Assembly (NCBI GenBank): GCA_964187785.1 | Contig: OZ076409.1 | Location: forward strand, 57,476,001 to 57,540,000 | From: Amphiscolops sp. MND2022 | Lineage: Eukaryota | Direction of reading: 5' to 3' | DNA length: 64,000 nt | In this document: positions 2,466 to 63,813 of the stretch, one piece after another | Position numbering within the stretch: the stretch's first letter is position 1 | Layout of the letters: each line of letters starts with the position of its first letter | Notes under the pieces: model-generated | What the model saw: only the letters and a program-made list of their open reading frames with translations | Database searches by the model: none | Told to the model about the DNA's origin: nothing | Program-made: the position numbers and the translations under genes

Positions 2466-2835
2466 AACAAGCCGGGAACGGCCCAAGTCGGCGCCATATC
2501 TAAGGCTCAAAAATAGCAAAAGGACTTCAAAGTGTCAAGTATTCTCTTCTACAGTACCCGCATGAGGAAAAAATTGAAAAAAATCCCATTTTTTTCGAAG
2601 TTTTTTTTCAAATTTTTTTTGGTCTCCGATAAGTCGCAAAGTGCCGAAAAATGTAAAAGAGACCTCAAAAAAGCCTAAATATCCTCTATCTCAAGTGCCA
2701 GTAGAAGTAGTGTGGCATTTAGTGTTAGTTCAAGTCAGCTTAAAAAGCTTATAAAATCTGTCAGTTCGTTGGTCTTAAAAAAAAGAAGTCACTACTATAG
2801 TCTGCGTTTTTCTACGAAAAGCGCCGAATAAAAAA
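2466..2835 (-). mobile_element. Helentron-like non-autonomous element, family A
   Basis: Starts AACAAGCCGGGAACGGCCCAAGTCGGCGCC (hairpin + subTIR) and ends GCGCCGAATAAAAA; same termini as many other copies in the window. Confidence 0.75.
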
Positions 2836-2892
2836 TGGAGCCTCGAAGTCACTAGTGGGCAAAATCACTGGCTGCAACCACGCCTATGAATG

Positions 2893-3376
2893 AACAAGCC
2901 GGAAACGGCCCAAGTCGGCGCCATATCTAGAGCTCAAAAATAGCAAAAAGGCTCTAAAGCATCAAGTATTCTTTTCTTCAGTACACGAATGAGGAAAAAA
3001 GTTTTTTGAAGTCTCCGGTAAGTCGTACAGTGCCGAAAATGTAAAAAGGGGGCCTTTGGGATTTTTTGGACATCCATTCTGTTGGAAAATATAAAAAATT
3101 GAAGGGGACCCTTTGAGACATAAAAAAAAATGTGCGAAAAAAGTCACAAAGCCGAAATATCATGCTCAGAAAATTTTGGTCAAGGGCGAGACTCACCCCA
3201 CATCCTTCTGCTTGACAGACCTCAAAAAAATCATAATTAACCTCTATGCAAGTGGCAGTAGAAGTTACATTAGTGTGCCAGCTTATAAAGCTTATAAAAT
3301 CTGTCACTTTGTTGGTCCTTAAAGAAAAAAAGTCACTGCAATGGTCTGCGTTTTTCTACGAAAAGCGCCGATTAAA
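2893..3376 (-). mobile_element. Helentron-like family A copy with degenerate tRNA-like cassette (~3180-3258, -)
   Basis: Family A termini; interior is the reverse complement of the 63271-63813 copy, including the tRNA-like part. Confidence 0.75.
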
Positions 3377-3801
3377 CAAAAATGGCAACATAACGTCTAA
3401 ACTTAAGGAAAAAGTACGTAGTAGGAAAAATACTACTTTACGTAGTAGGAAAAATACTACAGAACGATCTCTTCCAGTTTTCTATTATGACGTCATTTCT
3501 AGCTGGAGCAGTTGTTCGCCAGTCGAACTTCCATGCATTTCCTGCAAGAATCTGTTAAATTTCATTTCTAAGATATTAGAAGACAATGCATTATTCTTGC
3601 AGGTATCTTGGAAGATCTTGGAAGAAAAGATCTGATCTTGGAAGTAACTTGGAAGAAAAGTCCTGAATCTTAGACGTAACTTGCACGAAAATGCTTAAAG
3701 GTAAATTGGAAGAAAATGCCTGAACCTTGGAGGTAACTTGGAAAATGAGTTTGAAACATTTCTAGTCGAATATTTTTAAAGCATCAGCAAAACAAATATA
3801 G

Positions 3802-4092
3802 ACACAGAGACGAAGCGGTGCTTCGCAACACATGACGAAGACATAGATTATTTTAATATGCGTATATATATTATTTTAATCGCATGCGTATATATTCAAC
3901 AGTTCAACTTTGTTCAATAACGTCCCTGTGGCACAGTGGTCAACACTTATGCCGTGCAATCGGGAGGCTGCAGGTTCGAATCTCTCTGGGGTTTTGGCTT
4001 TATTCTAAAAAGCGCTCATTATGAAGTTGACTATTGTGGAAAAAAATCTTTCTTAACTGGACTGCAATGCACATTGACTTCGTCATGTGCAA
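3802..4092 (-). mobile_element. Helentron-like family B (~290 bp) with tRNA-like core
   Basis: Hairpin CGAAGC-GGT-GCTTCG, then 12-bp subTIR CACATGACGAAG (3829-3840) whose exact inverse CTTCGTCATGTG is at 4078-4089. Near-identical copies at ~50707-50995, ~52840-53128 and ~54973-55261. Confidence 0.75.
3922..3993 (+). pseudogene. tRNA-derived cassette (A box TGGCACAGTGG, B box GGTTCGAATC); positional anticodon TGC
   Basis: Canonical A/B box spacing, but the stems do not pair, so not a functional tRNA. Copies at 50825, 52958 and 55091. Confidence 0.6.
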
Positions 4093-5438
4093 TATAGATG
4101 AATGTGAATATGTACACGTATTTGAATATTACTGCATAAGAGTTCGACATATGAGATTCAAGTTTGTTGAGGTCAAGTGGACAGTAGCTGTTTACTTGAG
4201 TAGTTCCTTCATCACGATCTTCGCAAGTAAAGGCGCGGCTCAGCGGGCTGCCATAGGTCACCATCGTGGCAAACGTGCAGGTCCCAAAAACGGTAGCTTT
4301 GAAATATCCATTTTATCTTGCAAGAACTTCAGTCACATTTAAATCCCCGCGACTAAATAAAACAGACAACATGGAAGCAACCATTATACTACAAGCAATT
4401 GAGCCTTGTTCTGCATTTGCATTAAGTTTTACTATATTCATTTTTAACATATTCTTGGTTTAAAATTGTAAAAACAAGCTCGACATTTTCCGTACAATTC
4501 AGATATTTTCTTGCAGAATTTCATTCAATTTAGAGACATTGTCGTGCCGGATTCTTGGAAGACCTTGAAAGAATCTTGCAAGAAACGTCTGACCAGCCAG
4601 AATCTGGCAGGTTTGTCTGGAATGTGAGATACTTGGAAGCGTCGTGCAGATAATGTCTGATATCTTCCACTTCTGCCAGATTCTTGCAAGAAATGTATAG
4701 GAGTTCGACCAAGATATCTCTAAGCCATCGGATTAACTGCTGATTTTTCTAAACTGGTTCTATAACCCAATCTGCGGCTTTTGAATGAAATTTTTACCGA
4801 ATTTTTGGAAGTTTTTCATGAACGCTTTTTCATCTGAAAAACACTTTTGTTGATCTGTTATTCTTTGGCAGTTGACCTTTTTTTGGCATTTTAACATTAT
4901 TAATGGCACCATGATTGCCTTGTTGCAAATCTTCAACTTTTGAAGTAATGAAATACATAGAAATGAAATATTCATTGTCTTCTCATTCTTCTGTCATCCC
5001 TGTAATTTGCCGCGTACTGCTTTTCCGTGACAGAATTTGAGAAAGTTTGATCAATTGGCTCTTTAAACAATGCACTCTAGCAAATGTTTACTCAAATACA
5101 AATTGAAACTTGAAAAATTTAATCCCAGTTTGTCTAGCTAGTGCTGGGAATGCGAGGCTCCGAACTCGAAAGTCCGGGATCAATTCCCGGTCTTGGCAAA
5201 TTTTTCCTTTTCATTTGCCAATTTGCATAAGATTTCCAGGACTGCATCTCCTTTGGTATCCTTGGAAGTTCTGGATTTCACAAAATTATATATACAACGT
5301 GCTGTGCTCGCTTGCTTACTTACTTCACTTCATTTTGCTTCTGTTGTTTCATTTCAGTTTTTGCAGTTTTATTGGACGAACCACGATCATGATAAGCACT
5401 TGCTTGACTCTAGCGCAAAGAAAATGCCAGTTCCTTTA

Positions 5439-5980
5439 TTTTTAGTCGGCGCTTCATGAAGTGAAACGCGACTAATATAGTGACTTTTTTCAATCCAGAC
5501 GAACTGACCAAAATGGTTCTTAGAAGTTCTACAAATCTTTATGGTCCCAAATTGAATCATTTTGCCTAGCGAACTGAACGAAAAAGGTTTTTCTTCTTTT
5601 TCCGCGTAACATACCATACCGCGAGAGACTAAGGAGTCCCGCTTCAATTTTTTGATGTTTTTTGACAGACTGGATGTTGAAAAATCCCAACGGGTCCCCC
5701 CATTCGGTTTTTTTTGGCATTGTGAGACTTTTTTCGGATTTTTTTCCACCAAAGGGTCCCCCCTTCAATTTCTTTGATGTTTTGCAACAATGGATGTTAA
5801 AAAATGCGAAAGGATCCCCCTTTAGCGCGACAGGGGCCCGCGCTAGCGGGTACCTGGCGCGCCAGTTCCCTGTTTGAGTTTCTCGTGAGTTTCATACTTT
5901 GAGTTTTTTGACACTTTCATGTCCTTTTGCTATTTTTGAGCCTTAGATATGGCGCCGACTTATGCCGTTCCCGGCTTGTT
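5439..5980 (+). mobile_element. Helentron-like family A copy
   Basis: TTTTTAGTCGGCGC...GGCGCCGACTTATGCCGTTCCCGGCTTGTT with GGGTCCCC internal repeats. Confidence 0.75.
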
Positions 5981-6262: not shown

Positions 6263-6935
6263 CGGACCGCTTCAACTATATGGTTCAAAATTATTAAACT
6301 AACTGCATGCAGAAAAGCGATTGCAAATAAAACTTGAAGTCCATTTTCTCTAGCTAGTTTGTGTTGCTTACAAAGTCACCTCAGAAAACACCAAATGCTG
6401 TTTAAGACATTTCGAAATAGTGCATCGAATGCAACGAAATGGAACTGGAATTCAGTATATTCTGTATATTCTGAAAACGTAAGCCCTAAAACAAGCAGGT
6501 ATTTAAAGCTGGAATAAGGTCATTGGACTCCTTGTAACGTTCGATCCCAAACGTTTGACCTTACGGACCAGTGGTTTACATTTAGAAAGATTTAAATGCC
6601 GTGAAATGAAAATTGGGGCAGAGGACATTCACGAAGCTACAGTTCGTTCAATTTTATAAATTAATATGTGCTCAATTTTTTTACTGACTAAAGAACTTTG
6701 AGCTCATTCAAGTTTTCAACCATTCACCTTAATCCTTTTTAATTATGGAATAGAGAATTGGCCAGCATGTATCCCTTCATAACCGCGGTAAATGGTCGTG
6801 CTTTTGATGAAACATACTCTCATTCCTCATTTCAGTGACCAGAATTTCAGTGAAAAGAATAGAACGAATAACAACGAAACTACAAAAGCCATTACCGCGC
6901 AACCTCAAGAAAACGTTCCATTTGAAGCCGATGAT

Positions 6936-8295
6936 CCCTGGTTGGCCATCATGGCTAATCCATGGATATTCATCCATGATCATGGATTGTTCAACACATT
7001 ACATACTTATTCATGGAAAAACATCGATGATTCATGGGAGAGTGACGCTTCATGGATTTTCATCCATGATTTTCATCCATGACTTCATCCATGACTTCAT
7101 CCATGATTGTCATCCATGATTCATCTATGATTTGCCATGTTAAAAAATTCGTTCAAAGTAGGCAAAATTTTCTGTGCGTGTCTCTTCCCATAAAATGGAG
7201 GTTTTTTTGTTGTTTATTGTCGTTTTTGCTATTATTGGAATTTCAGGTTTACCTTTATGATAAAGAAGGATAGGTAGGACTTCAGGCCGCGAGATAGGCA
7301 GAGAACCTAGAAAGTCCGACATCTTGGAACATAATTTCTCAATTTCAGGTAATTTTGTTATGGGAATTATTCTTTGAAGGGATCTCGAATCCCATGATAT
7401 CCGCTTAATTTATGCTCTTTTTAGGTGTTTTGATCATTTTTGAGGGTATTTTCGTAATTTATCAATGCAAAAACTGGATTTTTTGGTATTACTCTTTTCA
7501 TAATTCATCGAATCTAGTGTATTCAGTTTAACGGCCAGTTCAAGAACTGCCCTGGTTGGAACTGCTTGAACTTTTTACATGTTTGTGTAGGTTACCAAGC
7601 TAAATTTCCATGATTTTATAAAATTCTCAAAGAAATGTCCATGCATTAGATTTCACTGATTCGATTTAATTTTATCAAGCTGCCTATAAACTGCATCTTA
7701 AATTTGGCGGCAATTCTGCGCCGCGACATTTTGCAGGTTTCATAAAGACGCCGTTCTAATTTTGAAAGCAGCTGAGACCTTAATCAATTTTACCGCGCTT
7801 TCAATGCAAACAAATTTCAGTCACATTATAAGTTTCAAAGTAGCGTCATATTCAGCGTGCTATTTGACTAATGGTGTTTACACAAGGTAGTTGCTTGAGA
7901 AACTTACGCGTGAAAACAAAGTGATCGCTGCGGCGAAGAAGTGGAATTGTTTTAAGTTTTTATTCAAATAGTGAAGGCTGCATTGTAATCCTACAAAATG
8001 TTTCCATGCACGGTCCCGGAATTTTCCATGTTTTATAAAAATTTAGCCTGCATGTTTCCATGCAGCATGTAAAAAATTCAAGCAATCTCGACGAGGGTGG
8101 CCCTTCTCATTAATTTGCATTGACGATCATCCTCGGCTCATTTTCATCCATGGTTCATGGGTTTCTATCCATGAATCATCCATGAATCATGGATATCTTT
8201 CCAAGATCATGGAATGATTCATGGCATGGCGATCCATGAATCATGGATGAATCATGGATGAATATCCATGAAATAGCCATGATGGTTAACCTGGG
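6936..8295. mobile_element. CCC...GGG MITE (CMC/EnSpm-like), 2-bp TSD AT, CATCCATGA subterminal repeats
   Basis: AT|CCCTGGTTGGCCATCATGGCTAATCCATGGATATTCATCCATGAT ... ATCATGGATGAATATCCATGAAATAGCCATGATGGTTAACCTGGG|AT. Confidence 0.75.
7550..8097. mobile_element. Second CCC...GGG MITE nested in the first, 2-bp TSD TG
   Basis: TG|CCCTGGTTGGAACTGCTTGAA ... TTCAAGCAATCTCGACGAGGG|TG; inverted partial copies at ~20099-20577 and ~20981-21152. Confidence 0.75.
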
Positions 8296-9415
8296 ATATC
8301 TGTGACTTCAAAAGTGCATCCGGTAAGCAAGTAATAGGAGACAAGGTGGATTGTAGATACCATTGAAGGCCAGCCCTCAAAAAACCAAAAGAAAGTGGAA
8401 TCGTTTCTGTTGAAAAGTTTTTTTCCTTCGTACTAAATTCTACAGACTCGTTGACCAGTCTGGTTCTCAAAAACAGTCAGGCTCCTCAATCACCCAGATA
8501 TATTTCAAAATAAAAAAATCAGTGTCTGTTTATGGAACTACAGACAAGAGAGTACTGTGATTACGACGGTGATTACGATCATCCCCGTATGATGTTCTCA
8601 GCTAATTAACATGGATTATTTGTTCTCACTTTCAGTTTTGATGAGGGCATCAAGTGAAATTCATGTAAATTGAAGAAATTTTATCTTTTGAGCCTCATAT
8701 TTTGGTAACGGTTGATCATTTTTGAGATAAAAAAAAATCCATGGATTCCGTAGAGTTAATTGAGCAAAATACTTGCCGAAAGAACTGTGGATGAAGCGGT
8801 CAGAAAGTTGAAAAACGCCAAAAAGCTTCAGTTTTGCTCAAAATCGGTTCTTTGAAATTTTCTTATTTTGTCTATAGAAATTTTAAAAAAACACTAGTGT
8901 AAACTAAATGAAACGTTTAGTTCTAAAGGTTTTCAAAATTTTCCACCGTTTTAGAAACAATCGAGCCTTAAATCTCCCGGGGATGATTTCTGAATCATAG
9001 TACTGTAGTTTAACTATTTGAAGATGAATCAGCATCTCCGCCCGAATAAGAAGAGGATCAAAAGTTAACACTGTGCCTCAAGGATTTCCTAAGACTTCCG
9101 GAACAGGATGAGTGAAAGAAATTCTTGTTCCAAATTCGAATTGGTTTGTTTATTTTTGGGCCCCTCGCTGAGGTTTCCGACAGTGGGCAACATTTTTGGA
9201 AAATAGGGTTTCTTCTCACCAATTTGTTTTGTTTTGCTTTTCAGTCAGTGAAATGCGTTTTTCGAAGCCACAGGGCACATTTTCTTTGTATATATGAGAA
9301 TCAATTCCAAGCAACTTTCCAAGCAGATCATTAAGACTTTGCACCTTTTGAGTCTTAAACAAGGCGCCGACGTGAGACGTTCTCGTCTTGTTTCACTGTC
9401 AGTTGCCAAAAATGG

Positions 9416-12065
9416 TGTCACGACCCGCTCCCGGTAGATGTTTCACTTACCATGCTGGAATTCACCGGGACGGGAGAGGATTCGGATATGGGTATGGAAA
9501 GAATTTCTGACAAGTTAGTTAATCTTTCTTACTTACAGCACAGCTAAGTAAACTGAAGGAATCCTCCGGTTCATAAAAGTTAACGTAAGGGAAACGCAAT
9601 ATTTCCGAGAATGATTTTTGCTCTAGCTAAAACTTCCGGTTCAACATTTATGCGCGTGATCATTTCTTCACTTCCTGTCACTTACACTTTTCATACCGAT
9701 CTAAATATCAAAAAGAAATAACAAGAACATAGAAAGATAGAAATAAGAGAGGAAAATAAGAGAGAGATAGAAATAAAAGGAAAACTTTAGGAGGAAACGT
9801 TTAAGCCTGTTATTTTAACGGATAGCATACGAACTAAAATTGAAAACAAATTACCAAAACAGTACCGAGAATGCGAAGGAGTTGTCAGAATTTGCTGAGA
9901 CCACTAGCAAATGATTTAAGCAAACAATCACAACATAATGCCCGCGTCCCTCAGAAACGCTAGTAGTCTAAGCTGTCCACCTAATGGACCAATAATATTG
10001 CTAGGTGGTCAATTTATTAGCGCTCGAAGTGAAAAAAACGACTCAGTGATGTCACAACTGAATCTTTCGGAATGATTTTTACCAGTGCCTGACATAGCGA
10101 TCACGTCACACCGCTAGTCAGCTATAGCTAATCTTAATACGTACGTCACTACTACGTTTGAAGGTTGCAATTGCGGATAGATTTGGGATCACTTTCATTT
10201 TTCGACTTAGACCCCAGCTTCCCTAACCCGGTTATTCATGATAAAACTACATCGGAGTTGTAGAAAATCTATCTTTTGAAAAAGAGAGAAAAACATCTTA
10301 CTTCTCTAACCCGGGAACCCAATTCGGTTGCGAAGGATTTGTCAGAATTTGCTGAGACCACTAGCAAATGATTTAGGCAAACAATCACAACATAATGCCC
10401 GCCTCCCTCAGCAACGCTAGTAGTCTAAGCTGTCCACCTGATGGACCAATAATATTGCTAGGTGGTCAATTTATTAGCGCTCGAAGTGAAAAAAACGACT
10501 CAGTGATGTCACAACTGAATCTTTTGGAATGATTTTTACTAGTGCCTGACATAGCTATCACGTCACACTGCTAGTCAGCTAAAGCTAATCTTGAAACGTA
10601 CGTCACTACTACGTTTGAAAGTTGCAAATAGGTTGCAATTGCAACTTCCCTAACCCAACTCCTTCGCAACCGTAAGATGTTTTTCCCTCTTATTCAAAAA
10701 TGGATTTTCTACAAATCTGATGTAGTTTCATCATCGGGAATAACCGGGTTAGGGAAGCTGGGCACTAAGTCGAAAAATGAAAGTAATCCCAAATCCATCC
10801 GTGCTTTGTGATACTCAATTGTATCATAGAAAGATACCGGAAATTTTTAGAGATTGCGTTGAACGAAACGTCACATCAACACCTTACCTGAAATACATGT
10901 TTTCTACCTTGTATGTTAACGCTAGAGTCAAAGCTATACTCTACTGGATGAAGTGATTAAAAATAGAATTGTTTCAATGAAGTCACACTTGATGAAGTTG
11001 TTTCCTGTGTATTACGTATTTGTGCCTTTTAGTACAATGAAAGTGCACTAATTTGTGTTGTTGGAAGTTTAGTACTTTTATAATAATGTCCTCATAGTTT
11101 AATTGTACGTATAATCTCCGTCATGTATTAAAAAGAATTAAGTTTAAATCATGTACTTGCATATTTGTATTCGATATTGTGTTCATCGATAAACCTCTCA
11201 GCAACATAGTTCCTCCATATTTTGACAAACCAATTTTTTCGTTCTAGTCAAGTGATATTTTTTTGACTGTCATACTTTTGTCTATTTTTTTAAAATTTCA
11301 AACTAGGAAAGTTGAGTTATTTGTTTACGCCAGCGTGCTTTCGCCGTCAAGATTTTAATTAGATTTTATTTTACCGCGATTTCAACTCTCGAACAGCAAA
11401 TGCCTTGGTTTGAACAAGAATGTTTTCAACAATAGTGCCGTACATGCGACGCAACTAGGATTTTCAATAACTGATTTGGGCACGCAGGACCAAAATAATA
11501 CGAATCAACAAAGCTTTTTAGTGAGCAAAACCGATTTTTACGATACCTAAGAACTTTTAGGTGAGAAGCAAATGATGCTAAGAAGGTATAAATAAGTAGA
11601 ACCAAGCAATGTTTGCAGTTATTTGTTGAGCCTTTTTACCTATCGCTTTCTAAACGTTGAAATAAAAACACGTTTTCTTTGAAGATTTCAATCTTACGAA
11701 AGATCAATCTTTCACTTGAAAACTGACAACTACAAGCCAAAAGAGAAAAGCAGTTGAAGAGTTAGTTTCAGGAGACTTCGAAACCGCTATACCTGAAAAC
11801 AATCAATCCGAGAGCAGGACCAAGTAAATCACCTAGAATTCACCCTGAAAATCTAGACAAACTAAAGACATCTCTCAGAAAGGAAGGTTTGTCTGATCTC
11901 AATAAGATCCTAGCTGAAAACCAAAAGGAGATGTTAAAACTGATAATGCCAACTACTAAAAAGACTCTGATTCTGAAACGGAAAATGTTCTTCCTACAAC
12001 TAAATTTACACTAATAAAACCCAAAACGACTATTCATGAAAACACCCCGAAAACTAGTCGTAACA
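9416..12065 (+). mobile_element. Solo LTR of an LTR retrotransposon (2650 bp including nested insertions)
   Basis: TGTCACGAC...GTCGTAACA inverted termini flanked by a perfect 5-bp TSD AATGG (9411-9415, 12066-12070). A decayed ORF (SQKRKAVEELVSGDFE...KILAENQKEMLKL) runs up to the 3' end. Confidence 0.85.
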
Positions 12066-12789
12066 AATGGACCCCTGTTGTCTCAAAAAAGTTGAAATAA
12101 TTTAGTTTCAGACTCCAAATTTTTCCTGCTTTCCCTCTATAGTTTCTGGCATACTTGCATAACTTCCCTTCCACCTAATTCATATGCTGGTTCTTGGCAG
12201 GGTTTGAATCGATTGTCGGTACCAGGTGATTGTGTTCATCTGAGTGTACGTGTGTTCGGTTCCCGCATCAAACTAAGTTTATTTATGGTTCCAAAAAAAC
12301 CTTCCTTTCGGTTTTGTTTCGCAACGATGCGACTTTTTGATACTTTTAAACTGAAGGCACCCTGCTTAGATTTTCAACAGAAACAAAGAGTTTTGCAATT
12401 AGAGAGCGTATAGTCCAACTTAGGGTTTCGTCACTGTGCCCCTTACTAACAAAATGTTTTAAAAACAAACCTGAATTTTGAGAAAATTTTTTCACCCATT
12501 TTTTCAGTTTTCTTGAAGGTTTTTGTGAAAAAGTTCGTTTTCCGACTTCTAAGGGTGTCCTCGTTGATTAAAGGTGACAACTGTGGAACTGTTAATAAAC
12601 GTTTTTTGACTCTGTGCGACTCTTTCAGAAAATTGCTTTGGAACAGAATTTTTTAGGAACAGAAAATTTTAGTAATATTTTCAGTTTTCCAGACAAAATA
12701 TTTTGTTACTCAGACATCACGCTGCCATTATTTCTACATCTTTCAAGTTTGACTTTGCTAGCATTGAGTTGTCAGTTATTGCGCAAATC

Positions 12790-15700: not shown

Positions 15701-16440
15701 TACTTGACACTTTGAAGTGCTTTTGCTATTTTTGAGCCTTAGATATGGCGCCGACTTGGGCCGGTCTCGGCTTGTTCTAGTTTGTTTTGGACGACAAAAC
15801 GTTTCTTCTCATGTTCTTGTTTATTTCCGCGTATTACTACTATTATATCGACCAGTCATGCCGGTGTAGAGTTTTCTAACGTTCGGTCGATTTTTTTCCT
15901 AAATTATTGTGAGTATGTCGGACAAACCGTAAACTGCTTTTTGAATTCATAATATCCGCTAAACATGCCCCGGAGATTGCGGGTACTTATTGGCGACTGT
16001 TTTCTTTCGATAATTTCATTTTTCTATATTCGTAATCTAAGTCAATCTTCGAAGTGAATAAATGAGTTGTCCGATGACTATTTTCTCCCGATATTTGGTT
16101 TTATAATTCTTCCATGTTCAGCATGTTTTGTGTCCTCTATCTCTTCGTCGGTAAGTTTTCTAACTTTTCGGTTGATGTTTGATCTCATCTGACACGCGCT
16201 TGCGTAGTGTCCCTTCTTCTCGCAGTTGTTACAATTGGATTCCAGTGCGGGGTATTTGTGTATCGGGCTTCAGTTTGGTGCATTGCAAAATCTACTCGGC
16301 CGGGTTGAGGTAAATTTTCTTTTCGGTCTGGTACCAAATTTTTCCTTTCTTTGTTTTGGTTCTTCTTTGATGATTGGTTTTCTTCCTGTAATCAGGGCTT
16401 CTGGTATCCTGTTTTTTTTGTTCTTCTTTTCATTTATCAT
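12790..16440 (-). mobile_element. Decayed Ty3/Gypsy gag-pol (zinc knuckle, RT, RNase H, integrase)
   Basis: On the minus strand: CNNCEKKGHYASAC knuckle (~16195-16235); RT with PA*LVDII in place of the YxDD motif (~15840-15870) and EQKVEAILKLKSP...FLG; RNase H DASKTGLG...ELELLAIVWG...YTDHQ (~14500-14870); integrase MDFTGK...IAIDRFSKWP...SDR...TGLKKTPFE (~12950-13400). Order is RT-RH-IN; many stops, frameshifts and deletions. Confidence 0.9.
15226..15776 (+). mobile_element. Helentron-like family A copy inserted into the Gypsy RT, with tRNA-Gly(GCC)-like cassette (~15381-15453)
   Basis: Full family A termini; removing it rejoins RT-like LEKSG/FRASKRKSEF at a T-run with no TSD. Confidence 0.8.
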
Positions 16441-16659
16441 TTTTTTTCATTGAATCTGTGGAACTGTTAAGAAACCTTTTTTGACGCTATGCGACTCTTT
16501 CAGAAATTTGTTTTGGAACAGAATTGTTTAGGAACAGAATATTTTAGTAAGATTTTCAGTTTTTCAGACAAAATACTTTGTTTCTCAGACATCACCCTGC
16601 CATTTCTACATCTTTTAAGTTTGACGTTGCTAGCATTGAGTTGTCAGTTATTGCGCAAT

Positions 16660-17570: not shown

Positions 17571-18509
17571 AAAAGTGCGAATGAGTTTCACCACCTGATT
17601 CTCACAGTTTGGAAATAGGAGGAAAACAATTTCAAGAGAACTTTTGGTGGAGTGGCCTTTTCTCGATGATTTTCGGGCAGGTTCTGCAGTGAAGTTTGAA
17701 AAAAAAATAAACTTCTAATTTTTCCGTCGTTCAATTTTGTTTTCCGTCGTTCAATTTCGTTTTCCCGACAAAAAAGCTGCAATAGTATTATGAAAAATTT
17801 GAGAAAAAAATGACCACGAAGCCCTAACTTTAGTCGACGGTTTTCATAGAAAACGCAGGTTATAGTAGTGACTTTTTCAAAACTAGCGAACTGACACATT
17901 TCTCTAAATTTTATAACTTGCTAACTTGCTCCCACTTTTTGCTCTAATTTTTAACGCGGATTTTTGGGCCTGGTCACGGGGGCTGAAAAACAGTAGTACG
18001 TCGGTTACAGTCCCGCGCTAATCCAAGTTTTCTATGCTTTGAAAGATAGAGGAAAGACCATAGGATCCCTTTGGGGTTTTACCGACAATGTGCACCATTT
18101 TTCCTGAAGTGTTTTCACCAAAGCCGCCGTTCGATTTTTGGCAGAAACAAAGCGTTTCCCTAGCATACCGGCCCCTTTAGGTTTTTCTTTTAATTAAAAA
18201 TTAAGGTTTTTGAACAAAATAATTTTGGTGTTTTGAAGTTTTTTGTTAATGAAAACAGTTTTTCGAGTCCTTAGGGTGGCCTATTTGGTTATTTTTTGGC
18301 TGTGGGTTAGCGCGAACTTTCTCTATTATTGTGGAAAAGATCTACAGATTCCATCATCATTTAAAAAAAAATGGTTCGGAAAAAACGTTCAACAAATAAA
18401 AAGGACATTTTTTAGTTTTTCGGCACTCTGAGTCTTTCCAAAAAATTTTCAAAAATTGATTTTTGATGTATCGAGTTTGGAAAAACAGTCTTTAAATCCT
18501 ATGGGTATC

Positions 18510-24500: not shown

Positions 24501-24504
24501 ATTT

Positions 24505-52000: not shown

Positions 52001-55000
52001 ACACTCGCGAAAAAAGTTGCGAACTTTCGAAGAGAAAACCAAACAAGCAGCAGCGCTGACCAGCAGAATATTTTCCGTCCGAACTGTTCTAGCAATGGCA
52101 TTTTTGAGGCTCAAGAGTAGCCATTGCCACTATGAACGCATAGAAGTTTGATAAAACAAGTTTTTCTTGGATTTTTTGTCAATTTCGATATGACTTTGAG
52201 GCATTTTTTTCAAAACAACTTGCATTTATCTCTTCAAAGAAGCCTCTTGGACAACGACTTTTCTCTTTGTTGAACGTTTTTAGCTTTCTAAGCTTGCAAG
52301 TGTATCAAAAATTTAACAAAAATTCCATAAAAACGTTGTAAATCTGATTTGTGGAATTTTTCAAATTCGGTCTCAATTTGAAGAATTTTTGAATTAAAAA
52401 TTTACATTTATTTCTCCGAAAAAACCTCTTGGATAACAAAATTTTTCCTTCTAAACGTTTCAACATTCTAAGCCACGAAATCTATCGAAAATTTGACAAA
52501 ACTTGGATATAAATTTCGTGCTTGGCAAATTTTGTAAAAAAACCGTTTGATTTAAATATTTTCCTTTTCCATGAAATATGGACGGAAAACAAGCAGTATC
52601 AACCAATGGTAAAAGGACAACATTGTAAAAATTTCATCAATTTTACAGCGCTCAAAAATACCCGAAGGGATATGCATAAGACTCGAAAACCATTTTCCCC
52701 AACTGGAAACATCAAAAAACCCCATCTTTCTCAACCGAAAACCTTTCAAAAAATAACTGTAAAAGGGGGACCCTCTAAGATTTTGTTGGAAAATATCAAA
52801 AAATTCAAGGGGCATCCTTTGGAGACTGAAAAAATTTCGACACAGAGGCGAAGCGGTGCTTCGCAACACATGACGAAGACATCGATTATTTTAATATGCG
52901 TATATATTATTTTAATCGCATGCGTATATATTCAACAGTTCAACTTTGTTCAATAACGTCCCTATGGCCCAGTGGTCAACACTTATGCCGTGCAATCGGG
53001 AGGCTGCAGGTTCGAATCTCTCTGGGGTTTTGGCTTTTATCTAAAAGGCGCTCATTATGAAGTTGACTATAGTGGAAAAAAAAACTTACTTAGCTGGACT
53101 GCAATGCACATTGACTTCATCATGTGCAAAAAACAAAAAAGGAGAATTTCGAACAGTCTCATAGTGTCGAAAAATCTGAAAGAATGTTTTAACATTCGTT
53201 GTTGCAAAATTTCAAAAAAATTTAAGGGAGGACCCTTCGGGGACATTGAAAAATTTTCGAAAATAAGTCTCAAAAAGCCGAAAAAGGGGGAGTCTCATTG
53301 TCGAAAAAAGTGAGAATCTTCTGCTCCGAAAAACTTGAAAAAAAATTAGCGCATAGGCACGGGTTCGAACCCTTTGGGTTGGTTAAAAAAGCAAGCATCT
53401 TACCGCTAGACCAAGAAAGTCTGAATTATGCGACTTGCGGTCTGAAATGAGTTGTCGCGCGGAAAAAAACTCGCATTTTCCCATAACACTTGCTTATCGC
53501 AAGTGTAATAAGCCCTGTTTCATCATTGTTAAGTTTCTCAAGTAACAATTCTATACATTTAGGGCACAATTTATCTGACGGTAATTGAGACAAAAAGTGC
53601 AGTGGCTCTGCGAAGTTTTCCTATACGGTTACATCAGAACACTTCCAAATGGGACCTTTCAGGTTTTGAAGAAACCCTTTGACTACTGTTATCACAAAAA
53701 CACAATACTGTGATTTTGTCAAAAAATCGCAAGGCCGAAAATCTCCAAAAGTCTTACAAATTGAAAACTTCAAAAAACCGAAGCAGCGATCCTGTAAAGA
53801 AAACAAACCTAACTAGTCGCACACAGTCGTAAAACAGTAGGTCTTTTCCACAGTTAGTAAGAAAATTCTGAACACTGGACCACAATACAACCTAAGAGGC
53901 CACATTCAAGAGTGAGAAACCCAGTTTTTTGGCAAGCCAGTGTGCAAAAAACCATAGGGAGCTCTCTATACTCGCAAAACGCTTTGCTTCTGCTGAAAAT
54001 CGAGGGGGCCTACGGTTTTAAATATAAGAAAAAGGATGCATAGCGCCGAAAAATTCCGATGTGGGAACCTTTACAACCCATGTACTTCTGCTTCTCCAAC
54101 CTTTTAAAACAGAGGCGAAGCCGTGCTTCGCAAACACTCGCGAAAAAAGTTGCGAACTTTCGAAGAGAAAACCAAACAAGCAGCAGCGCTGACCAGCAGA
54201 ATATTTTCCGTCCGAACTGTTCTAGCAATGGCATTTTTGAGGCTCAAGAGTAGCCATTGCCACTATGAACGCATAGAAGTTTGATAAAACAAGTTTTTCT
54301 TGGATTTTTTGTCAATTTCGATATGACTTTGAGGCATTTTTTTCAAAACAACTTGCATTTATCTCTTCAAAGAAGCCTCTTGGACAACGACTTTTCTCTT
54401 TGTTGAACGTTTTTAGCTTTCTAAGCTTGCAAGTGTATCAAAAATTTAACAAAAATTCCATAAAAACGTTGTAAATCTGATTTGTGGAATTTTTCAAATT
54501 CGGTCTCAATTTGAAGAATTTTTGAATTAAAAATTTACATTTATTTCTCCGAAAAAACCTCTTGGATAACAAAATTTTTCCTTCTAAACGTTTCAACATT
54601 CTAAGCCACGAAATCTATCGAAAATTTGACAAAACTTGGATATAAATTTCGTGCTTGGCAAATTTTGTAAAAAAACCGTTTGATTTAAATATTTTCCTTT
54701 TCCATGAAATATGGACGGAAAACAAGCAGTATCAACCAATGGTAAAAGGACAACATTGTAAAAATTTCATCAATTTTACAGCGCTCAAAAATACCCGAAG
54801 GGATATGCATAAGACTCGAAAACCATTTTCCCCAACTGGAAACATCAAAAAACCCCATCTTTCTCAACCGAAAACCTTTCAAAAAATAACTGTAAAAGGG
54901 GGACCCTCTAAGATTTTGTTGGAAAATATCAAAAAATTCAAGGGGCATCCTTTGGAGACTGAAAAAATTTCGACACAGAGGCGAAGCGGTGCTTCGCAAC

Positions 55001-55396
55001 ACATGACGAAGACATCGATTATTTTAATATGCGTATATATTATTTTAATCGCATGCGTATATATTCAACAGTTCAACTTTGTTCAATAACGTCCCTATGG
55101 CCCAGTGGTCAACACTTATGCCGTGCAATCGGGAGGCTGCAGGTTCGAATCTCTCTGGGGTTTTGGCTTTTATCTAAAAGGCGCTCATTATGAAGTTGAC
55201 TATAGTGGAAAAAAAAACTTACTTAGCTGGACTGCAATGCACATTGACTTCGTCATGTGCAAAAAACAAAAAAGGAGAATTTCGAACAGTCTCATAGTGT
55301 CGAAAAATCTGAAAGAATGTTTTAACATTCGTTGTTGCAAAATATCAAAAAAATTTAAGGGAGGACCCTTCGGGGACATTGAAAAATTTTCGAAAA
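48812..55396. repeat. Tandem triplication, units of 2304, 2133 and 2133 bp
   Basis: Register motif AAAAATTTTCGAAAA at 48812, 51116, 53249 and 55382. Units 2 and 3 are nearly identical; unit 1 has ~160 extra bp near 50208-50368. Confidence 0.95.
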
Positions 55397-55514
55397 AAGC
55401 CTCACAAACCCAAAAAGGGGAAGTCTCATAGTGCCGAAAAAATTTGAAAGGGATGCTTTAGTGTGAATCAGGGACAAGAACACGTGATCTGCTTCGGAAT
55501 GCTTGTAAAAAAAT

Positions 55515-55590
55515 TAGCGCATACGCACCGGTTCGAACACGAACCCTCTGGGTTGAAAAGCAAGCATCTTACCCCTAGACCACGAACGCC
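55515..55590 (-). pseudogene. tRNA-Glu(TTC)-like cassette in family C
   Basis: Minus strand GTGGTCTAGGGGTAAGATGCTTGC-TT-TTC-AA-CCCAG-AGGGT-TCGTG-TTCGAAC resembles eukaryotic tRNA-Glu; stems are broken. Confidence 0.6.
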
Positions 55591-55675
55591 TGAACTGTGC
55601 GAGTTGTGGGCTGAAACAAGTTGTCGCGCGGAAAAGCACCCGCACTTCACCATAACACTTGCTTATCGCAAGTGT

Positions 55676-56040
55676 AACAAGCCGGGAACGGCCCAAGTCG
55701 GCGCCATATCTAAGGCTCAAAAAGACTCAAAAACCACTTTTTCTACAACTGGAGACAACAAAAGCTCTCAAAAACTAAAAATTGAAAAAAAAATTCCGAA
55801 TTTTTTTTTCGAAGTTTCCGATAAGTCGCATAGTGCCGAAAAATGTAAAAGGGGGGACGCTTTTTATCTCATGTTAGACGCTTTGGATGCGTTGAAAATG
55901 AAGTACTAAGTACATATGGTAAAAATTGGTAAATGTGCATTAATTGCCTTAATGCACAAAAAGTGGACGTTACGCGTTGAACTGACGAAAAAAAACTAGC
56001 CACTGTAAGAGTCGGGATTTTCTTCGAAAACGCCGACTAA
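55676..56040 (-). mobile_element. Helentron-like family A copy abutting the family C end
   Basis: GCAAGTGT-AA-CAAGCCGGGAACGGCCCAAGTCGGCGCC...CGCCGACTAA. Confidence 0.75.
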
Positions 56041-56831: not shown

Positions 56832-59302
56832 TCAAGAATATTCCTCAAGTGCAGGTAGAATAGTGACGTCAGATGATACCCTTTCTTCTGAGTCGAATGA
56901 TTGAGTTAAGTTCACAGGAGCGTTTCCTCCTATCCACGGCATCCGCCCAACCACGGAGGGGTACACCGCAACGATGATGATTGTGATGATCGCATACACT
57001 TCGCAGAAGCAGGTTGCTCTGCGTAATCGGTTTAAATGAAACTCTTTTCTGTTTTTGAAGCTCCGAGTTTTGGCGAAAGCACTAAATACTGATTCATGTT
57101 TCGAGGTTTCGAAACTTGAGGTTCGACTTGAAGATCAAGAGTGAAATTCAAGATAAGATGATTCATGTAAAATTTGCTTCATTAATGGATGCGTGCTGGA
57201 AATCAAGCAGTTTTCAACAATGACCACGTTGGTCAGGCGTTGGAATCAATCATGAGATTGGATTTATTGGAAGTTAATAATTTGATCTGCAGTGATCACC
57301 TCGTTTCTCCGGAATCAATTTCTACAGACATTTCGAATTCATTTTTACACGACCAGGAACGGCTCGACTATAAAACGACTAGGCTAGAATGATTCTGTTT
57401 GAAAAATACCAGAGATGAAATTTATTGACCATGACAAGGGAACCTCCGTTTTAGATAAAACGATCAATACGCCAGTCGTGGTTCAATGAGGTTTTGGTTT
57501 CTCCTCGATTGAGTAAGACCTGTGGACTATTTCGACTTCTCTAAAGATGCAAGTCACGCATTATGACGCAGTTAAACCATGGAAAAAAACATTTTCTTGA
57601 TAAAATTGCAATAAGAGACATTGTTTTGAATATGCACTGACACAGCATTGTGTAAATCGAATTTATAATTTACAAAAATACCCGAAGAGATAACCATAGC
57701 ACTCAAAAACCGCTTTTACCCAACTGGAAACATCAAAACAACTTTTTTAATGGAAAAAAGTCTCATAGTGCCGAAAAAGGAGCTTCAACCTCGCTCAACA
57801 CTTTTTACAAGCCGAAACGATTCGCGAAACTCAAGGTACCCTTTGATTGAATTCATTTTTTAGAGTAAAGTCGTCCCTAAATCTAAACATCAAGAAACCC
57901 AATTTTGAAAAATTCGTCGATTTTTTCTTTCCGGGAAAAGTCTGTGCCGAAAAACCCCATAAATTGCACCCATAAAAACCCCACAGAAAATATATTGCAC
58001 TTTAGTACGATGCTACTTTTTGCTTGAACAGCAAGGAATCATACGGATATGCATTCCAAAGCTGGTTATCTCTATCCGGAGCAACCTGTGAGATGGTCTA
58101 TTGAACTCCTGTGTCTATCCTTCTCTGGGTCCACTGATACCATCAACATGTGGAAAAACATTCTCTGGGAGATAGCTGTTAAAATGTACCCTAGCATAAT
58201 GGTAGCATGTTCGTTATTCTCGTTCACCTATAATAATGCCCATTGCTTTAGCTCTGTGAAACTGGTAGTTGGTTCAAACTAGTAACAGTATTTTTCAAAA
58301 TATTGAAAGCCAGAAATATCTAATAAAGTTAATTTGAGCTACGTAATAATATAACTCAGGAAATTTTCTGAATTCTATCCAAAATTCCTTCAAATTAAAG
58401 CAGTGAAAGTTTTATGATAAACACTTGAATACAAACCAGAAACCTTCAATTTCAGTTCATTTACAGTGTGACAATTTGCAATTGAGATATTAAACTTGTT
58501 CACACGGTTTTTCCTTATGAAGTCACTCGTTTTTGATAAAAAAAATTAACAGCTTCCTGTTTTGAGTCACAAAAAACAGTCAATACGAACATAATTATAG
58601 TCAAAATGCGTGAAAAATGTTTTGTTCAAACAAAAAACTATTCCAATAGACGTTAACTTACTGTTATGAAAGGAGGTTTTACTTTCAATTAGGCTAGTCT
58701 GAAATTTCAAAGAAAATTTACTTTCAGCAATTTTGGTGGTGGGGGTATGACAGAAATGAGCCTTTGAAACTTACGGCTTTCAAAAAATTTCTCGCTTTGT
58801 GTTCAGTGATCCACATGTAAAACTATTAAAATAGACAAGAGTGAACGAAAAACTACCTTTGAGAATCTCCCTTGGAAATGGTAAAACCAAGACTTGAGTG
58901 AACCGTCTCGACTATCGCTCTGAAATTTGAGCTTATCACAAACCTCGAAGTTGAAAGCGCTTTACAATCACAAGCTATGTGAACCATATTAGCTGTCAAG
59001 TGAAGAAAAGTATTGCTCGAAATGAAAGAACAACATGCGATCTAAGAACAAATGCCAACAAGACTTATCAAAATTATTTGGAGCAAAAAAGCGTTCATTC
59101 AAGCTTCCATTTCGTTCACTTTAGTTGAAATTTGATGTAGCAAGCTAATCAATTTCTATTGGTTGTTCATTTAACATCTGATATACTTCACTAAACGCGG
59201 AAACTGCATTTTGAGGGGATCACTTCTTACCTGGTCATCGTTATGGTTGTGCATGCGGTTCTGCATGTACATAGGAAAGAAAACTTCCTCGACCATATCC
59301 AT
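56832..59302 (-). CDS. Tentative small single-pass membrane protein; candidate exons 59231-59302, 57300-57367, 56832-57126
   Basis: Open terminal exon containing VYAIITIIIVAVYPSVVG, TGA at 56832 and AATAAA just downstream. Splice phases are compatible (CAG|GTAAG at 59230; TTTTATAG acceptor; weak GTGATC donor). CACGTG and TGACGTCA lie upstream at 59459-59481. Confidence 0.4.
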
Positions 59303-59603: not shown

Positions 59604-60018
59604 GGCTCTTTTCTGTTCCCCCCCCACCACCAAAATTTTTGAAAATAACTTTCCTTAAAAACTTTAGACTAGCCTAATTAAAAGTCTTCTTTTAACCTTC
59701 TTTCATAACGGGAAGTTAACTTGTATTAGAGTAGTTTTCCGTTTGAACAAAACATTGTTCACACATTTTGACTATAATTATGTTCGTATTAAGTGTTTAT
59801 TGGCGACTCAAAACAGGAAGCTGTTGATTTCTTCATCAAAAATGCGTAACTACATAGGGAAAAAGTGTGAACAAAGTTTGGATCTGAATCCTAAACTATC
59901 ACCATGAGGATAAATTTCAAACTCAAGCTTTCTGGTTTGTTTTCAAGTCTATTTGTTATAAGATTTTCACTAATTTTCCAAAAAAATTTTTGTGGTGGGG
60001 GGAAAACAGAAAAGAGCC
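59604..60018. mobile_element. 415-bp MITE with GG-terminal TIRs and 8-bp TSD (Merlin- or Mutator-like)
   Basis: GGATGTTT|GGCTCTTTTCTGTT..CCCCCACCAC ... GTGGTGGGGGAAAACAGAAAAGAGCC|GGATGTTT; diverged inverted copy at ~58400-58762 and a further end at ~59530-59547. Confidence 0.8.
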
Positions 60019-60865
60019 GGATGTTTTTTGAAAAAAAGACGCCCTGATAACCGGGATACTTTTCGGCCTAAATTATTTTTTAGCAATAACACGATTATAT
60101 GTATTGAGCGTAGCCAATGAACTTATTATTGAACGAATATATTCACAAAATTGCCAAAAAAACTTGCAAAAAACGCAAAAAATGAACTAAATATCATTTC
60201 AGGTATATTCTGAAAACTTCAAAAATTTCGATACATTCGCATGCTGCAAATCTATTTTTTGTACCTAAATTTTGTGAAAAAACATTTCGTCAATAAAATT
60301 ACAGTATGTTAAAATTTGGAGAAAAAACACCGGTTGAGATTAATTTTTCTTCCAAATATAATATGGCGGAAAATAACTTTTCGACATTCGCGGTTCTGTT
60401 ATTTTAGAAGTGCCCAACCGGAGCTATCATACCGATTGAAATTAAAAACTTTCCTGGGGAGGAAAAAGCAGTATTAATATGGATATGCTTGAATCAATTG
60501 GCTCGAAGATGACAAAAAAAATCACATTTAACACTTTATTTCATTCTTTGAATACCAATTAAACATAAATCATTTTTTAGTTCTTTCCTCAAAATTAACC
60601 GTCGTATTACCCCTTTGCTAAACTTAATCTTAATAACGTACATTTTATTTGAACTTACTAAAGATGAATGAACGTGTAGTACTTAATTGAGACCTTTCTG
60701 TAGACGATGAACTACATGCACACTGACGATCAATTGCGAGCGATTCGAGTCACTATGCAAGCAAACTAGAACTGTTGGGGGTAATGTACCAGAGAACTGT
60801 GAGAAAAGAACTGAAACTATTAGCTAACACAATCCATATTCGAATTCAATTTAGGGGCAAATATT

Positions 60866-62950
60866 TTACAAAATGAATGAAGCGTAAATAGCCAACAAAA
60901 ATAGGAGCGTGATTGCGATCAGGGTGAAGGTCGTTGGCGGAGTGAAGAGACATCGATATGAAAATCTGAGGTACCAAAGTACCGAGAGAAATATTGCGAA
61001 TAACAAAAACATCAAATTGCTCAAGTCTATATTGTCTGAATTGAAGTTGTCCAATCTTCCGCCCCCCGATGCATCATTGCCAGCTGCATTTGAAGACCCA
61101 GAAGTAGCACTTTGAGCTAGAATGTGACAGTGGATGACGCAATTGACCAAAACGCCACTCTCCACAAGACTCAAAGTCTCATCTCGAAGTAGACCGCCGG
61201 CAAATATCAACCTCACCTGTCCGCCCCCGGAAATGACGTCACGAAATATGCGGGTTTTGAAGTCGGACAGCTTTTCAGAAGGGTGAACCTCCACTTCACA
61301 TTGAAGGTCGTTCAGAAACTTGAGTTTGATGAAATAACAGTCACACTGTTGGTCTCTCAGGTGTTCGGGCAATTCCAAGTTTAGAGAGGACAAGGAGAAC
61401 TGAGAACTGGAATAAGGAGGTGCATTTGATTGGCTGTCCGATGATGTCTGGTCAGTTTGAGATGTCGTCTGGTCAGCTGCTGTCGTAGCAGCGTTGGTGG
61501 CAGATATTGACTCAGAAGTCGCTGCTGCAACCGAACTTGTATTTCTTCTGCGCAACGTCGAAACAGCAGTTTGATGAACTTGTTCCACGAATGTCCGGAA
61601 GGAGTTTCTAAACAATTAGATATCATTTCTAAACAAAGAAAATTATAGATCGGGGAAACGTAATGGCCTTCGCGGTGTCAAAAATTGAGCAGAATTTCGG
61701 GACTTTTTATTTTTGCATCAGAACATCTGTTTACATGTTGAAACTAACAAAGTATTGTTCGTCGCAGACACCCCTCTGTTTTGAGATGTTCTGCTACCAT
61801 TTCCATTTCCAGAAATGTTGTGCAGATCGTCCTCCACAGAGGCAGACTCGTTCGAACTACTACTTGCCCCGCTTGCCACTGTTCCAGGGCCGTTGTTGTT
61901 CACGCTCTCGCCGCCTGTCCCTGGAGAAGATGCGTTGTAAGAAGTGTCGTTTAGCTCCGACTGAGTGACATCTAGTCCCGACAAGTGCTGTGAAAACAGC
62001 CACTGTTGAATTATCCCATCAAGAGCGTTAACCTTTTTAGAATTTTGGACAACAGTTTCTCAACAATAGAAACATTTTGTCTTCAATTCAATGTTTTCAA
62101 ATCTATTTTTTGTAAGACTTCGCTAGAAATCATGATAGAAAAACACTTTTCAGAAGAAAATGTTTAAACAAGACGGGAACGTCTAAAGTCGGCGCTATAT
62201 CTAAAGCTCAAAAGGCGCAAAGTTTTTAAAATTGTAAAAGGGGGACCCTTTAGACTTTTTCAAATCCAGTTTGCTGCAAAATATCAAAAAACTTGAAGGG
62301 GGGGACCGTTTGGCGACAAAAAAATTCGAAAAAAAGTAGCACAGTGCCGAAAAAAATTCAAAGGGGGGACCCTGTAGTCCCGTCCGGTTTTGTATCTTAG
62401 GTTAAAAATTGAGTACATGAAAGGGGCAACCCTTTGCACTAACTTAGATGCGATTCCGCTTGCCGGTCCAGTACTTTAGTAGTTCTGTAAAAAGTGTCTA
62501 CTACGCATACATTCTGTGGTCTGACGAAAAAAACTTGCCACAGTAATAGTCGGGCTCATTTTGATAAAATGCGCCGACTAAAAACAGTCATACTAAAAGT
62601 ATTTTCATGGGGGACTTTGCCAAGATTACGACCTGAGAGTCGTCTATCAAACTCATGATTTAGACAAACATTCACTCGAGGGACCCCTTTAAACATCGTT
62701 CATGAAGAACAGGATACGAAGAGGCACTATAATTGTCCGGTCTCTCAAGTCTAAGTGAATGGAGCCTGAAGAGTAGACTAACCTGGATGTCACTGTTGTT
62801 AAATGTCTGGTTGCCGCTGGTGAGCTGGAGGTAGAGCAGGGGTCGGTTGGGCACGTAGGTCGAGATCCACACCAGATACAGCAGCACAACCAGCAAGGTG
62901 GCCGCCAACAACAGCGTCACCTCGTCTCCGAAGCCCTCGATCAGTGTCAT
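60866..62950 (-). CDS. TMUB1: Transmembrane and ubiquitin-like domain-containing protein (TMUB1/2 family); exons 62783-62950, 61749-61987, 60866-61607; 382 aa
   Basis: N-terminus MTLIEGFGDEVT...VWIST matches the TMUB1 signature. UBL domain IKLKFLND...QVRLIFAGGLLRD...NCVIHCHI and two C-terminal TM helices. GT-AG junctions join in frame (phases 0 and 2). Confidence 0.93.
62166..62584 (-). mobile_element. Helentron-like family A variant (AGACG-GGAA-CGTCT hairpin) in TMUB intron 1
   Basis: AAACAAGACGGGAACGTCTAAAGTCGGCGC...GCGCCGACTAAAAA. Confidence 0.75.
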
Positions 62951-63270
62951 GTCACATCTGGAAACACGGCACAAGATTCAACAGATGATACATTACGTTC
63001 ACATATTACACATATACAGATCTCCGGATTCAGCAACTAACAATGAGTTAAATGAACATTAACAACCTCTGTTCGAGACACTTCATGAAAATGGTACAAA
63101 ATAAAAATTCGGTCAATTTTCTACGAAACCACCTATTCTTCGTACACGAGCTATAACTCAGCCGAAAAAAAACTTGCATTTCAATAAGTTGGAATGAGCT
63201 AGAGTAACAAGCTCATCATGGGTGAAGATCAAGAAAAAAATGTCCAGAGATAACAGTGAAAATTTTGCAA

Positions 63271-63813
63271 TTTTTTAGTCGGCGCTTTTCGTAGAAAACG
63301 CAGACTATAGCAGTGACTTTTTTTTCAAGACCAACGAAGTGACAGATTTCATAAGCTTTATAAGCTGCGTCCACTAACTGCCACACTTGTAACTTCTACT
63401 GCCACTTGGCATAGAGGTTAATTAGGATAGTTTTTGATGTCTGCCAAGCAGACGGACGTGGGTTCGAGTCCCGCCCATGACAAAAAATTTTTTGTGCAAG
63501 TTTTTTTCGGCTTGGTGAGACTTTTCTCGCAAATTTGTTAAATGTCTCCAAAGGGCCCCCTTCATTTTTTCCCCTATTTTGCAAAAACATGGATGTTCAA
63601 AAACTCCCAAAGGCCCCCTTTTACATTTTTCGGCACTATGCGACTTACCGGAGACAAAAAAAAATATCGAAAAAAATTCAATAAAAATTCGAAATCTTTT
63701 TTCAATTTTTTCCTCACGCGGGTACTGTAGAAGAGAATACTTGACACATTGAAGTCCTTTTGCTATTTTTGAGCCTTAGATATGGCACCGACTTGGGCCG
63801 TTCCCGGCTTGTT
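63271..63813 (+). mobile_element. Helentron-like family A copy with tRNA-Gly(GCC)-like cassette (~63400-63478)
   Basis: TTTTTTAGTCGGCGCTTTTCGTAGAAAACGCAGACT ... TGGCATAGAGG ... CT-GCC-AA ... GGTTCGAGTCCC ... GGCACCGACTTGGGCCGTTCCCGGCTTGTT. Confidence 0.8.

Follow-up and report, generated by a model that had tools for sequence, protein, structure and literature searches.

Helentron-associated interspersed elements (HINEs) are defined by an autonomous Helentron partner (PMC4067079). The published account of DINE-1 lists the characteristic features of that element, notes an ambiguity over its TT target, and states that it has neither RNA polymerase III (Pol III) signals nor similarity to tRNA (PMC2374699), and the same list of defining features, together with central repeats, is given for Cg_HINE of the oyster (PMC7492417). 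Because elements of the HINE type occur commonly in invertebrates, finding them is in itself nothing unusual. Here, we analyse such elements in a 64,000-nucleotide stretch of the acoel Amphiscolops sp. MND2022 (assembly GCA_964187785.1, contig OZ076409.1, positions 57,476,001 to 57,540,000; hereafter the window), which is eukaryotic DNA with 37% GC. Most probably, they belong to the DINE-1/HINE type of rolling-circle DNA elements and are non-autonomous. They are DINE-1/HINE-like by anatomy and insertion sites; HINE membership is unproven, because no Rep-helicase lies in the window and HINEs are defined by their Helentron partner. Based on published work (PMC4067079, PMC2374699), we infer that they would be moved by a Helentron through rolling-circle transposition.

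Like DINE-1, the elements have a 5′ subterminal inverted repeat (subTIR) with a nested partial inverted repeat, a 3′ subTIR and, after it, a short stem-loop showing compensatory changes, ends that are conserved around a variable, repeat-bearing middle, TT insertion sites, and no open reading frame (PMC2374699, PMC4067079). They differ from DINE-1 in having shorter subTIRs (7–12 bp vs. 13 bp) and shorter stems (4–7 bp vs. 7–11 bp), and in carrying internal tRNA-like Pol III cassettes but no GTCY microsatellite. With Cg_HINE and the bivalve Pearl elements they share the layout of subTIR, inverted repeat and palindrome, central repeats of 120–170 bp, the sharing of modules between families, and T-rich targets, whereas the microsatellite block is absent here and the word tRNA is absent from the main text of that study (PMC7492417). 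The HINEs of mites and Culex also have a variable number of terminal Ts, a 3′ palindrome, and several families per genome, but differ in having known partners and palindromic subTIRs of 12–15 bp that lie 38–60 bp from the 3′ end (PMC4067079).

Element families and the architecture of their ends

The elements were catalogued by profile searches of the termini, followed by pairing of 5′ and 3′ ends. Family A comprises 12 copies with both ends (363–793 bp, or ~1.3 kb if nested), a 13th copy lacking the 3′ hairpin (46136–46517), two tentative pairings, and seven orphan ends. Family B has four copies of 288 bp each, family C four copies of 1.0–1.7 kb, and family D a single copy of 516 bp; independent insertions number approximately 11, 2, 2, and 1, respectively. 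The catalogued elements cover 20.8% of the bases, or 25.6% including the long tentative pairings, within the 36.5% of the window identified as repeated DNA by self-BLAST, so that the statement in the first-pass annotation that they dominate the window has to be scaled down. The motifs listed in that annotation were all found in place, and its tally of at least 12 near-complete A copies holds, with the addition that two of the 12 stem from a 2.9-kb tandem duplication. By contrast, its “at least four families” was an overstatement: family A and a B/C pair are evident, but B and C, whose subTIRs differ, are sister subfamilies, because the 3′ hairpin and tail are common to both, and D is represented by one copy. 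Only two of the nine AGGAGTC matches belong to D (27106–27621), with approximately five expected by chance according to a hand estimate from base composition; the other seven were rejected as further D copies.

Copies of A, A-like, B, and C elements carry several unrelated internal tRNA-like cassettes composed of an A box, a B box, and an oligo-T run, located 83–153 bp from the 5′ end. The features of the catalogue are as follows.

2466–2829, minus strand: family A copy, cassette deleted
2893–3373, minus strand: family A copy; degenerate tRNA-like cassette at 3172–3250
3801–4090, minus strand: family B copy (B3801); exact 8-bp direct repeat abutting both ends; antisense tRNA-like cassette at 3919–4001
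5444–5980, plus strand: family A copy without cassette
9337–9392, plus strand: orphan A-type 3′ end
15232–15776, plus strand: family A copy; cassette at 15385–15464; inside a decayed LTR-retrotransposon-like region (LTR, long terminal repeat)
17829–18520, plus strand: A-type 5′ end and interior; 3′ end not found
20811–22958: five orphan A-type 3′ ends, at 20811 (minus strand, hairpin missing) and at 21223, 21421, 22270, and 22908 (plus strand)
24139–26348, plus strand: A-type 5′ and 3′ ends 2.2 kb apart, tentative pairing
26357–27727, plus strand: tentative, diverged A-like element that has a tRNA-like cassette of its own (26470–26543); D nested inside
27106–27621, minus strand: family D, with 7-bp subTIR, 5′ partial inverted repeat, 2.2 units of a 168-bp central repeat, and 3′ hairpin
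32962–34289, minus strand: outer A copy enclosing an inner A copy at 33691–34238
35908–37231, minus strand: duplicate of the nested A pair (inner copy 36636–37180), from the 31703–37592 tandem duplication
46136–46517, plus strand: A copy without 3′ hairpin
46520–46894, plus strand: older A-type interior and 3′ region; fifth tRNA-like piece at 46581–46634; hairpin split by the next A copy
46900–47692, plus strand: family A copy; approximately four units of the common ~120-bp core repeat
48057–49078, minus strand: family C copy C4, no nested B; cassette at 48905–48992
49681–53506, minus strand: two chimeric C copies (49681–51373 and 51975–53506) with nested B copies (50706–50993 and 52839–53126)
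54108–55675, minus strand: family C copy C1; nested B at 54972–55259
55518–55589, minus strand: best-kept tRNA-like cassette (in C1), followed by a T7 run
55676–56038, minus strand: family A copy, its 3′ end directly adjoining C1 at the 5′ end of the latter
62167–62579, minus strand: family A copy in a probable intron, flanked by two open frames of a ubiquitin-like/transmembrane gene
63277–63813, plus strand: family A copy (A63277); cassette at 63405–63489

The Helentron/DINE-1 layout proposed by the first-pass annotation proved to be real. A motif-blind scan for the whole layout (TT, subTIR, and partial inverted repeat at one end; inverse subTIR and GC-rich hairpin at the other), with criteria chosen after the elements had been seen, gave 18 matches in the window vs. 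a mean of 0.25 (maximum 2) in 40 block shuffles. Fourteen of these matches are A–D copies (eight A, four B, one C, and one D), while two lie in a palindromic repeat near 7–8 kb and two in the B/C array. The layout of D thus passes the scan, a single match being weak against 0.25 expected. The proposed 5′ T-run is variable, with five or six Ts in 13 of the 23 catalogued copies, two or three in nine, and none in one. The subTIR is 9 bp long in A, 12 bp in B, 10 bp in C, and 7 bp in D, with its 5′ copy a few nucleotides from the end, and the 5′ ends fold back on the subTIR in all six copies folded (z = −2.0 to −4.5). A stem-loop is present a few nucleotides after the 3′ subTIR, and is weak when taken alone for D (z = −0.8) and for one A end (z = −1.5). 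Two A 3′ ends (46483–46517 and 20811–20850) have no hairpin, as if it had been deleted between short CTTG repeats. Canonical Helitron ends (5′ TC, 3′ CTRR, and insertion between A and T) are not seen in these elements.

The ends are conserved and the interiors are mosaic: identities averaged over nine A copies (36 pairs) are 0.75 for the 5′ end and 0.91 for the 3′ end vs. 0.49 for the interior. A common core of ~120 bp occurs in both A and C, with 23 of its 24 matches inside catalogued copies and all in element sense. In the A 3′ stem, one position is a C–G pair in nine and an A–T pair in five of 15 distinct copies, and 93% of cells are paired; none of 500 shuffles reached this pairing score, in a test that is inflated by related copies. 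The stem is thus kept by compensatory change, perhaps through a single event or a few of them. When the ends are compared by reading, every 3′ hairpin has a distal arm that resembles the core of the 3′ subTIR, which suggests that one binding motif might be used several times in these elements.

Insertion sites and mode of movement

The copies lie at T-rich sites, in many cases nested in or adjacent to one another, and mostly with no apparent target duplication. TT or a longer T-run precedes the subTIR in 22 of 23 copies, most A copies have TT at either end, and two empty paralogues are T-rich, in agreement with the TT-site insertion suggested earlier. No A-tail is present in any of the 23 3′ flanks. 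The longest direct repeat between the two ends averages 3.2 nt in own pairs (n = 17) vs. 3.5 nt in cross pairs (n = 272), a comparison that omitted six duplicated copies. Once joined, the flanks of A63277 align with a paralogue at 50169–50213 that has no interruption (78% identity, E = 5e-4), and no bases are added at the junction. Nested B copies match empty core units: with one of these units there is no long duplication at the junction, and another differs by six T-rich bases. As regards the individual sites, the A copy at 46900 apparently entered an older A-type 3′ end at the TT of its hairpin loop (46880–46900). The eight bases 5′ of the subTIR are nearly alike (seven of eight) in both independent C copies (49079–49086 and 55676–55683), and for C1 these bases are the 3′ end of an A copy, which may reflect a target preference or chance.

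Consistent target-site duplications and poly(A) tails were among the signs that the first-pass annotation had named as telling against rolling-circle movement. Poly(A) is absent and no general duplication is apparent, but B3801 touches on the first sign, with an exact 8-bp direct repeat at both ends (one of 17 own pairs; ~0.5% by chance over all copies). The other three of the four independent B/C insertions lack such a repeat, including a B copy that is 95.5% identical to B3801.

By analogy with Helentrons, a Rep-helicase(-endonuclease) encoded elsewhere would bind the subTIR motif, nick at the 5′ hairpin, and displace one strand; displacement would stop after the 3′ stem-loop, and the strand would then be joined into a TT site. 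If only the ends are read by the enzyme, the interiors would consequently be free to collect passengers such as the ~120-bp core repeat and the tRNA-derived cassettes.

As previously stated for the window, no Rep-helicase was found in it. Pfam searches of 158 of its 176 stop-free stretches of at least 68 amino acids, the 18 omitted ones being in duplicated units, detected no Helitron, PIF1, or transposase domain, and the elements encode no protein. In tblastn searches of the window with 13 and 120 Helentron-type proteins, the only match was a remnant of an endonuclease from a long interspersed nuclear element (LINE) at 29078–29560. This remnant, at ~29.1–29.6 kb, was rejected as a piece of a Helentron, since six of ten relatives of the adjacent frame have a reverse transcriptase (RT) and none has a Helitron domain. 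The LINE endonuclease remnant as a whole (28300–29600, minus strand) is truncated and broken, with relatives that are 40–82% identical, six of ten with RT. Patterns of Rep motifs matched 34 loci in genome contigs and none in viral contigs; the 34 loci served only as Helentron-type control proteins, in which Helitron_like_N, PIF1, endonuclease, and OTU were confirmed, and none of them shares DNA with the window. Thirteen of the loci (L004, L005, L007–L009, L014, L016, L020, L024, L029, and L032–L034) represent long Helentron proteins of eukaryote type that lie on short contigs in bacterial genome bins, probably as host contamination.

Several observations weigh against assigning the elements to the DINE-1/HINE type. 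No autonomous partner was found within the window or in the pattern-searched contigs, searches of metagenome and viral contigs with patterns of the A 3′ end gave no match, and no acoel is named among the 120 listed of 475 Helentron-type proteins, most of which are nameless, so that this carries little weight. The subTIRs of A, C, and D are below the published 11–15 bp, the 3′ stems are shorter than those of DINE-1, and GTCY was not found among the 33 tandem-repeat rows of the window. In B and C, the 5′ end recurs in degenerate, inverse form as the 3′ tail. In addition to the 8-bp repeat at B3801, the two empty paralogues are only 75–82% identical, and the TT flanks fit either no duplication or a 2-bp TT duplication.

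Part of this evidence would be expected if the elements were MITEs (miniature transposable elements with inverted repeats) moved by a cut-and-paste DDE transposase, with TT duplication in A or a 7–8-bp, hAT-like duplication in B and C, and with the 3′ tail as a decayed terminal repeat. The exact repeat flanking B3801, the resemblance of the extreme 3′ end of B to the inverse of its 5′ end, and the TT at both ends of most A copies agree with this explanation, and DINE-1 itself was once read in this way (PMC2374699). A constant-length duplication combined with terminal repeats was not observed, and a 2-bp TT duplication would still fit. The absence of such an exact repeat from three of four independent B/C insertions, including the near-identical B copy, argues against it, as do the subterminal position of the perfect inverse repeat (20–27 nt inside the end), the covariation by which the A hairpin is kept, and the lack of a transposase in the 158 stretches scanned. 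Overall, we consider the MITE explanation improbable.

Slightly less probable still is rolling-circle movement by a partner of the Helitron2 or proto-Helentron type without endonuclease, in which case the elements would not be strict HINEs. Helitron2 is described as having asymmetric inverted repeats, palindromes at both ends, and no endonuclease (PMC4067079), and the subTIRs here are shorter than HINE norms; nevertheless, the targets are TT rather than AT, and the layout of subTIR and partial inverted repeat fits DINE-1 and Helentrons (PMC4067079, PMC5443660).

Within the DINE-1/HINE-type explanation, not every copy represents a transposition event. Three of the four B copies and two of the four C copies are products of one tandem array (48–56 kb). 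Of 44 informative sites in the 5′ part of the two middle C copies, 41 agree with C4, two with C1, and one with neither; at all ten sites beyond that part, the copies match C1. They are thus chimeras of C4 and C1, the signature of unequal crossing-over between these two copies, by which the array formed later, and a rolling-circle concatemer was rejected on this ground. The extra segment of C1 also has diverged repeat relatives at 43196–44800. A second tandem duplication (31703–37592; 2.95-kb unit, 98% identical) carries the nested A pair, and the copies at 35908 and 36636 are accordingly duplicates of the ones at 32962 and 33691; this duplication could be recent, or an assembly artefact.

Internal tRNA-like cassettes

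A strict B-box pattern, based on a consensus, gave 13 matches vs. 0.8 expected, all of them inside A, A-like, B, or C copies; after palindromes and duplications are taken into account, these reduce to ten sites and six independent insertions. A combined scan for A box and B box gave ten matches vs. 1.3 expected, nine inside the catalogue and the tenth in the older A-type interior (46581–46634), where it represents a fifth cassette type. All strong cassette matches lie inside elements, at fixed offsets. The four other types are 50–59% alike and are in sense orientation in A and C and antisense in B. Only three of the 12 paired A copies have a cassette, and the other nine retain both ends without it.

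Similarity to tRNA is detectable at low scores. Local Rfam scans gave tRNA matches for three of five pieces tested, including an end-to-end match of the C1 cassette (23.2 bits, E = 0.005; below the 29-bit cut-off) and a match of the A-like cassette at 26470–26543 (15.7 bits), and none for the B cassette or the 46581 piece. Over the whole window, Rfam identified no tRNA and one weak tmRNA-model match (63425–63480); ARAGORN called no tRNA in the window at default settings, and was noisy at lowered thresholds (31 and 200 calls). A free-standing tRNA-like piece at 5132–5198 (plus strand; Rfam tRNA 15.5 bits, E = 0.58) lies outside any element and has no other copy in the window. The cassettes changed less than their flanks in five of five comparisons (p = 0.014, 0.018, 0.14, 0.16, and 0.22), and four of six cassette types lie inside the strict catalogue (p = 0.04). 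The evidence of constraint on the cassettes is weak.

The cassettes raise the question of whether the elements are tRNA-derived short interspersed nuclear elements (SINEs), or SINE–HINE hybrids, copied at least sometimes by a LINE. This is the least probable of the explanations considered. In its favour, a complete A box, B box, and oligo-T occur in several families with a tRNA-like fold, a LINE endonuclease remnant lies in the window, and an 8-bp repeat accompanies one insertion. Against it, the cassette starts 83–153 bp inside the 5′ boundary, so that the 5′ end would be missing from a Pol III transcript, transcription would terminate at the T-run right after each cassette, the cassette is internal, antisense in B, and dispensable in the nine paired A copies that lack it, and there are neither tails nor general duplication.

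If the elements are instead of the DINE-1/HINE type, the cassettes are most likely captured tRNA pseudogenes or SINE heads. A more speculative and rather unlikely alternative is that acoel rolling-circle elements repeatedly and independently gained tRNA-derived Pol III promoters just inside the 5′ hairpin, which were kept because they help the element, either by providing open chromatin, bound by Pol III/TFIIIC, where the nick is made or through escape from silencing. The four dissimilar cassette types at similar offsets, the fifth in an older A-type interior, and the slower change than in the flanks agree with such retention, and the lack of a cassette in most A copies, the three non-significant comparisons, and the piece at 5132–5198 outside elements argue against it. 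A literature search, with Repbase, Dfam, and subscription journals outside its scope, retrieved no report of tRNA cassettes in HINEs.

Genomic surroundings and significance

A number of other features are present in the window. At 12900–17700 (minus strand) there is a decayed LTR-retrotransposon-like remnant with many stops and a weak integrase-core match (13170–13538, E = 0.0016), most of which is flanked by 90%-identical direct repeats (12581–12795 and 16456–16667). An 822-amino-acid frame at 39871–42339 (plus strand), which appears to be coiled-coil and FAM184-like, has no Pfam match; its five relatives are 70–90% identical, including one named from Symsagittifera roscoffensis (71%), which places the host among the acoels, as a relative of this species. 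At 60866–62977 (minus strand), a presumably TMUB-like gene has a ubiquitin-like domain and hydrophobic segments over two open frames, and A copies lie between these frames and ~300 bp upstream. Inverted blocks of 12–13-bp CATGGAT-type repeats (6921–8312) flank 1.3 kb, possibly as a foldback or MITE-like element, and the flanked segment includes a repeat that is also found at 20072–20550 and 20983–21149. Other repeats include 360-bp inverted repeats (58402–58762 and 59604–59971; 78% identical, 840 bp apart) and a direct repeat of 299 bp (96%) whose copies are interleaved with those of a 130-bp inverted repeat (9872–10801). Inside the A-like element, a near-perfect hairpin with 33-bp arms (26644–26712) matched several miRNA models below the cut-off.

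A fifth to a quarter of this gene-bearing acoel window consists of DINE-1/HINE-like elements. HINE-type elements look under-annotated in acoels: in the available text of the S. roscoffensis genome paper, Helitrons are unmentioned, the repeat table has no rolling-circle class, and SINEs are given as 0.02% (PMC9911081).

The first-pass annotation had described neither the cassettes nor the origin of the B/C array by recombination. The array shows that these copies seed tandem duplications by unequal crossing-over. The cassettes were unexpected, because the lack of Pol III and tRNA signals was an argument against regarding DINE-1 as a SINE. If they are no more than passengers, they would still spread potential Pol III/TFIIIC sites near genes and mislead the annotation of SINEs and tRNAs. 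Were the promoters indeed kept for their benefit to the elements, this would be a class of DNA transposons with SINE-like promoters, in which B might also be mobile by a second, duplication-making route.

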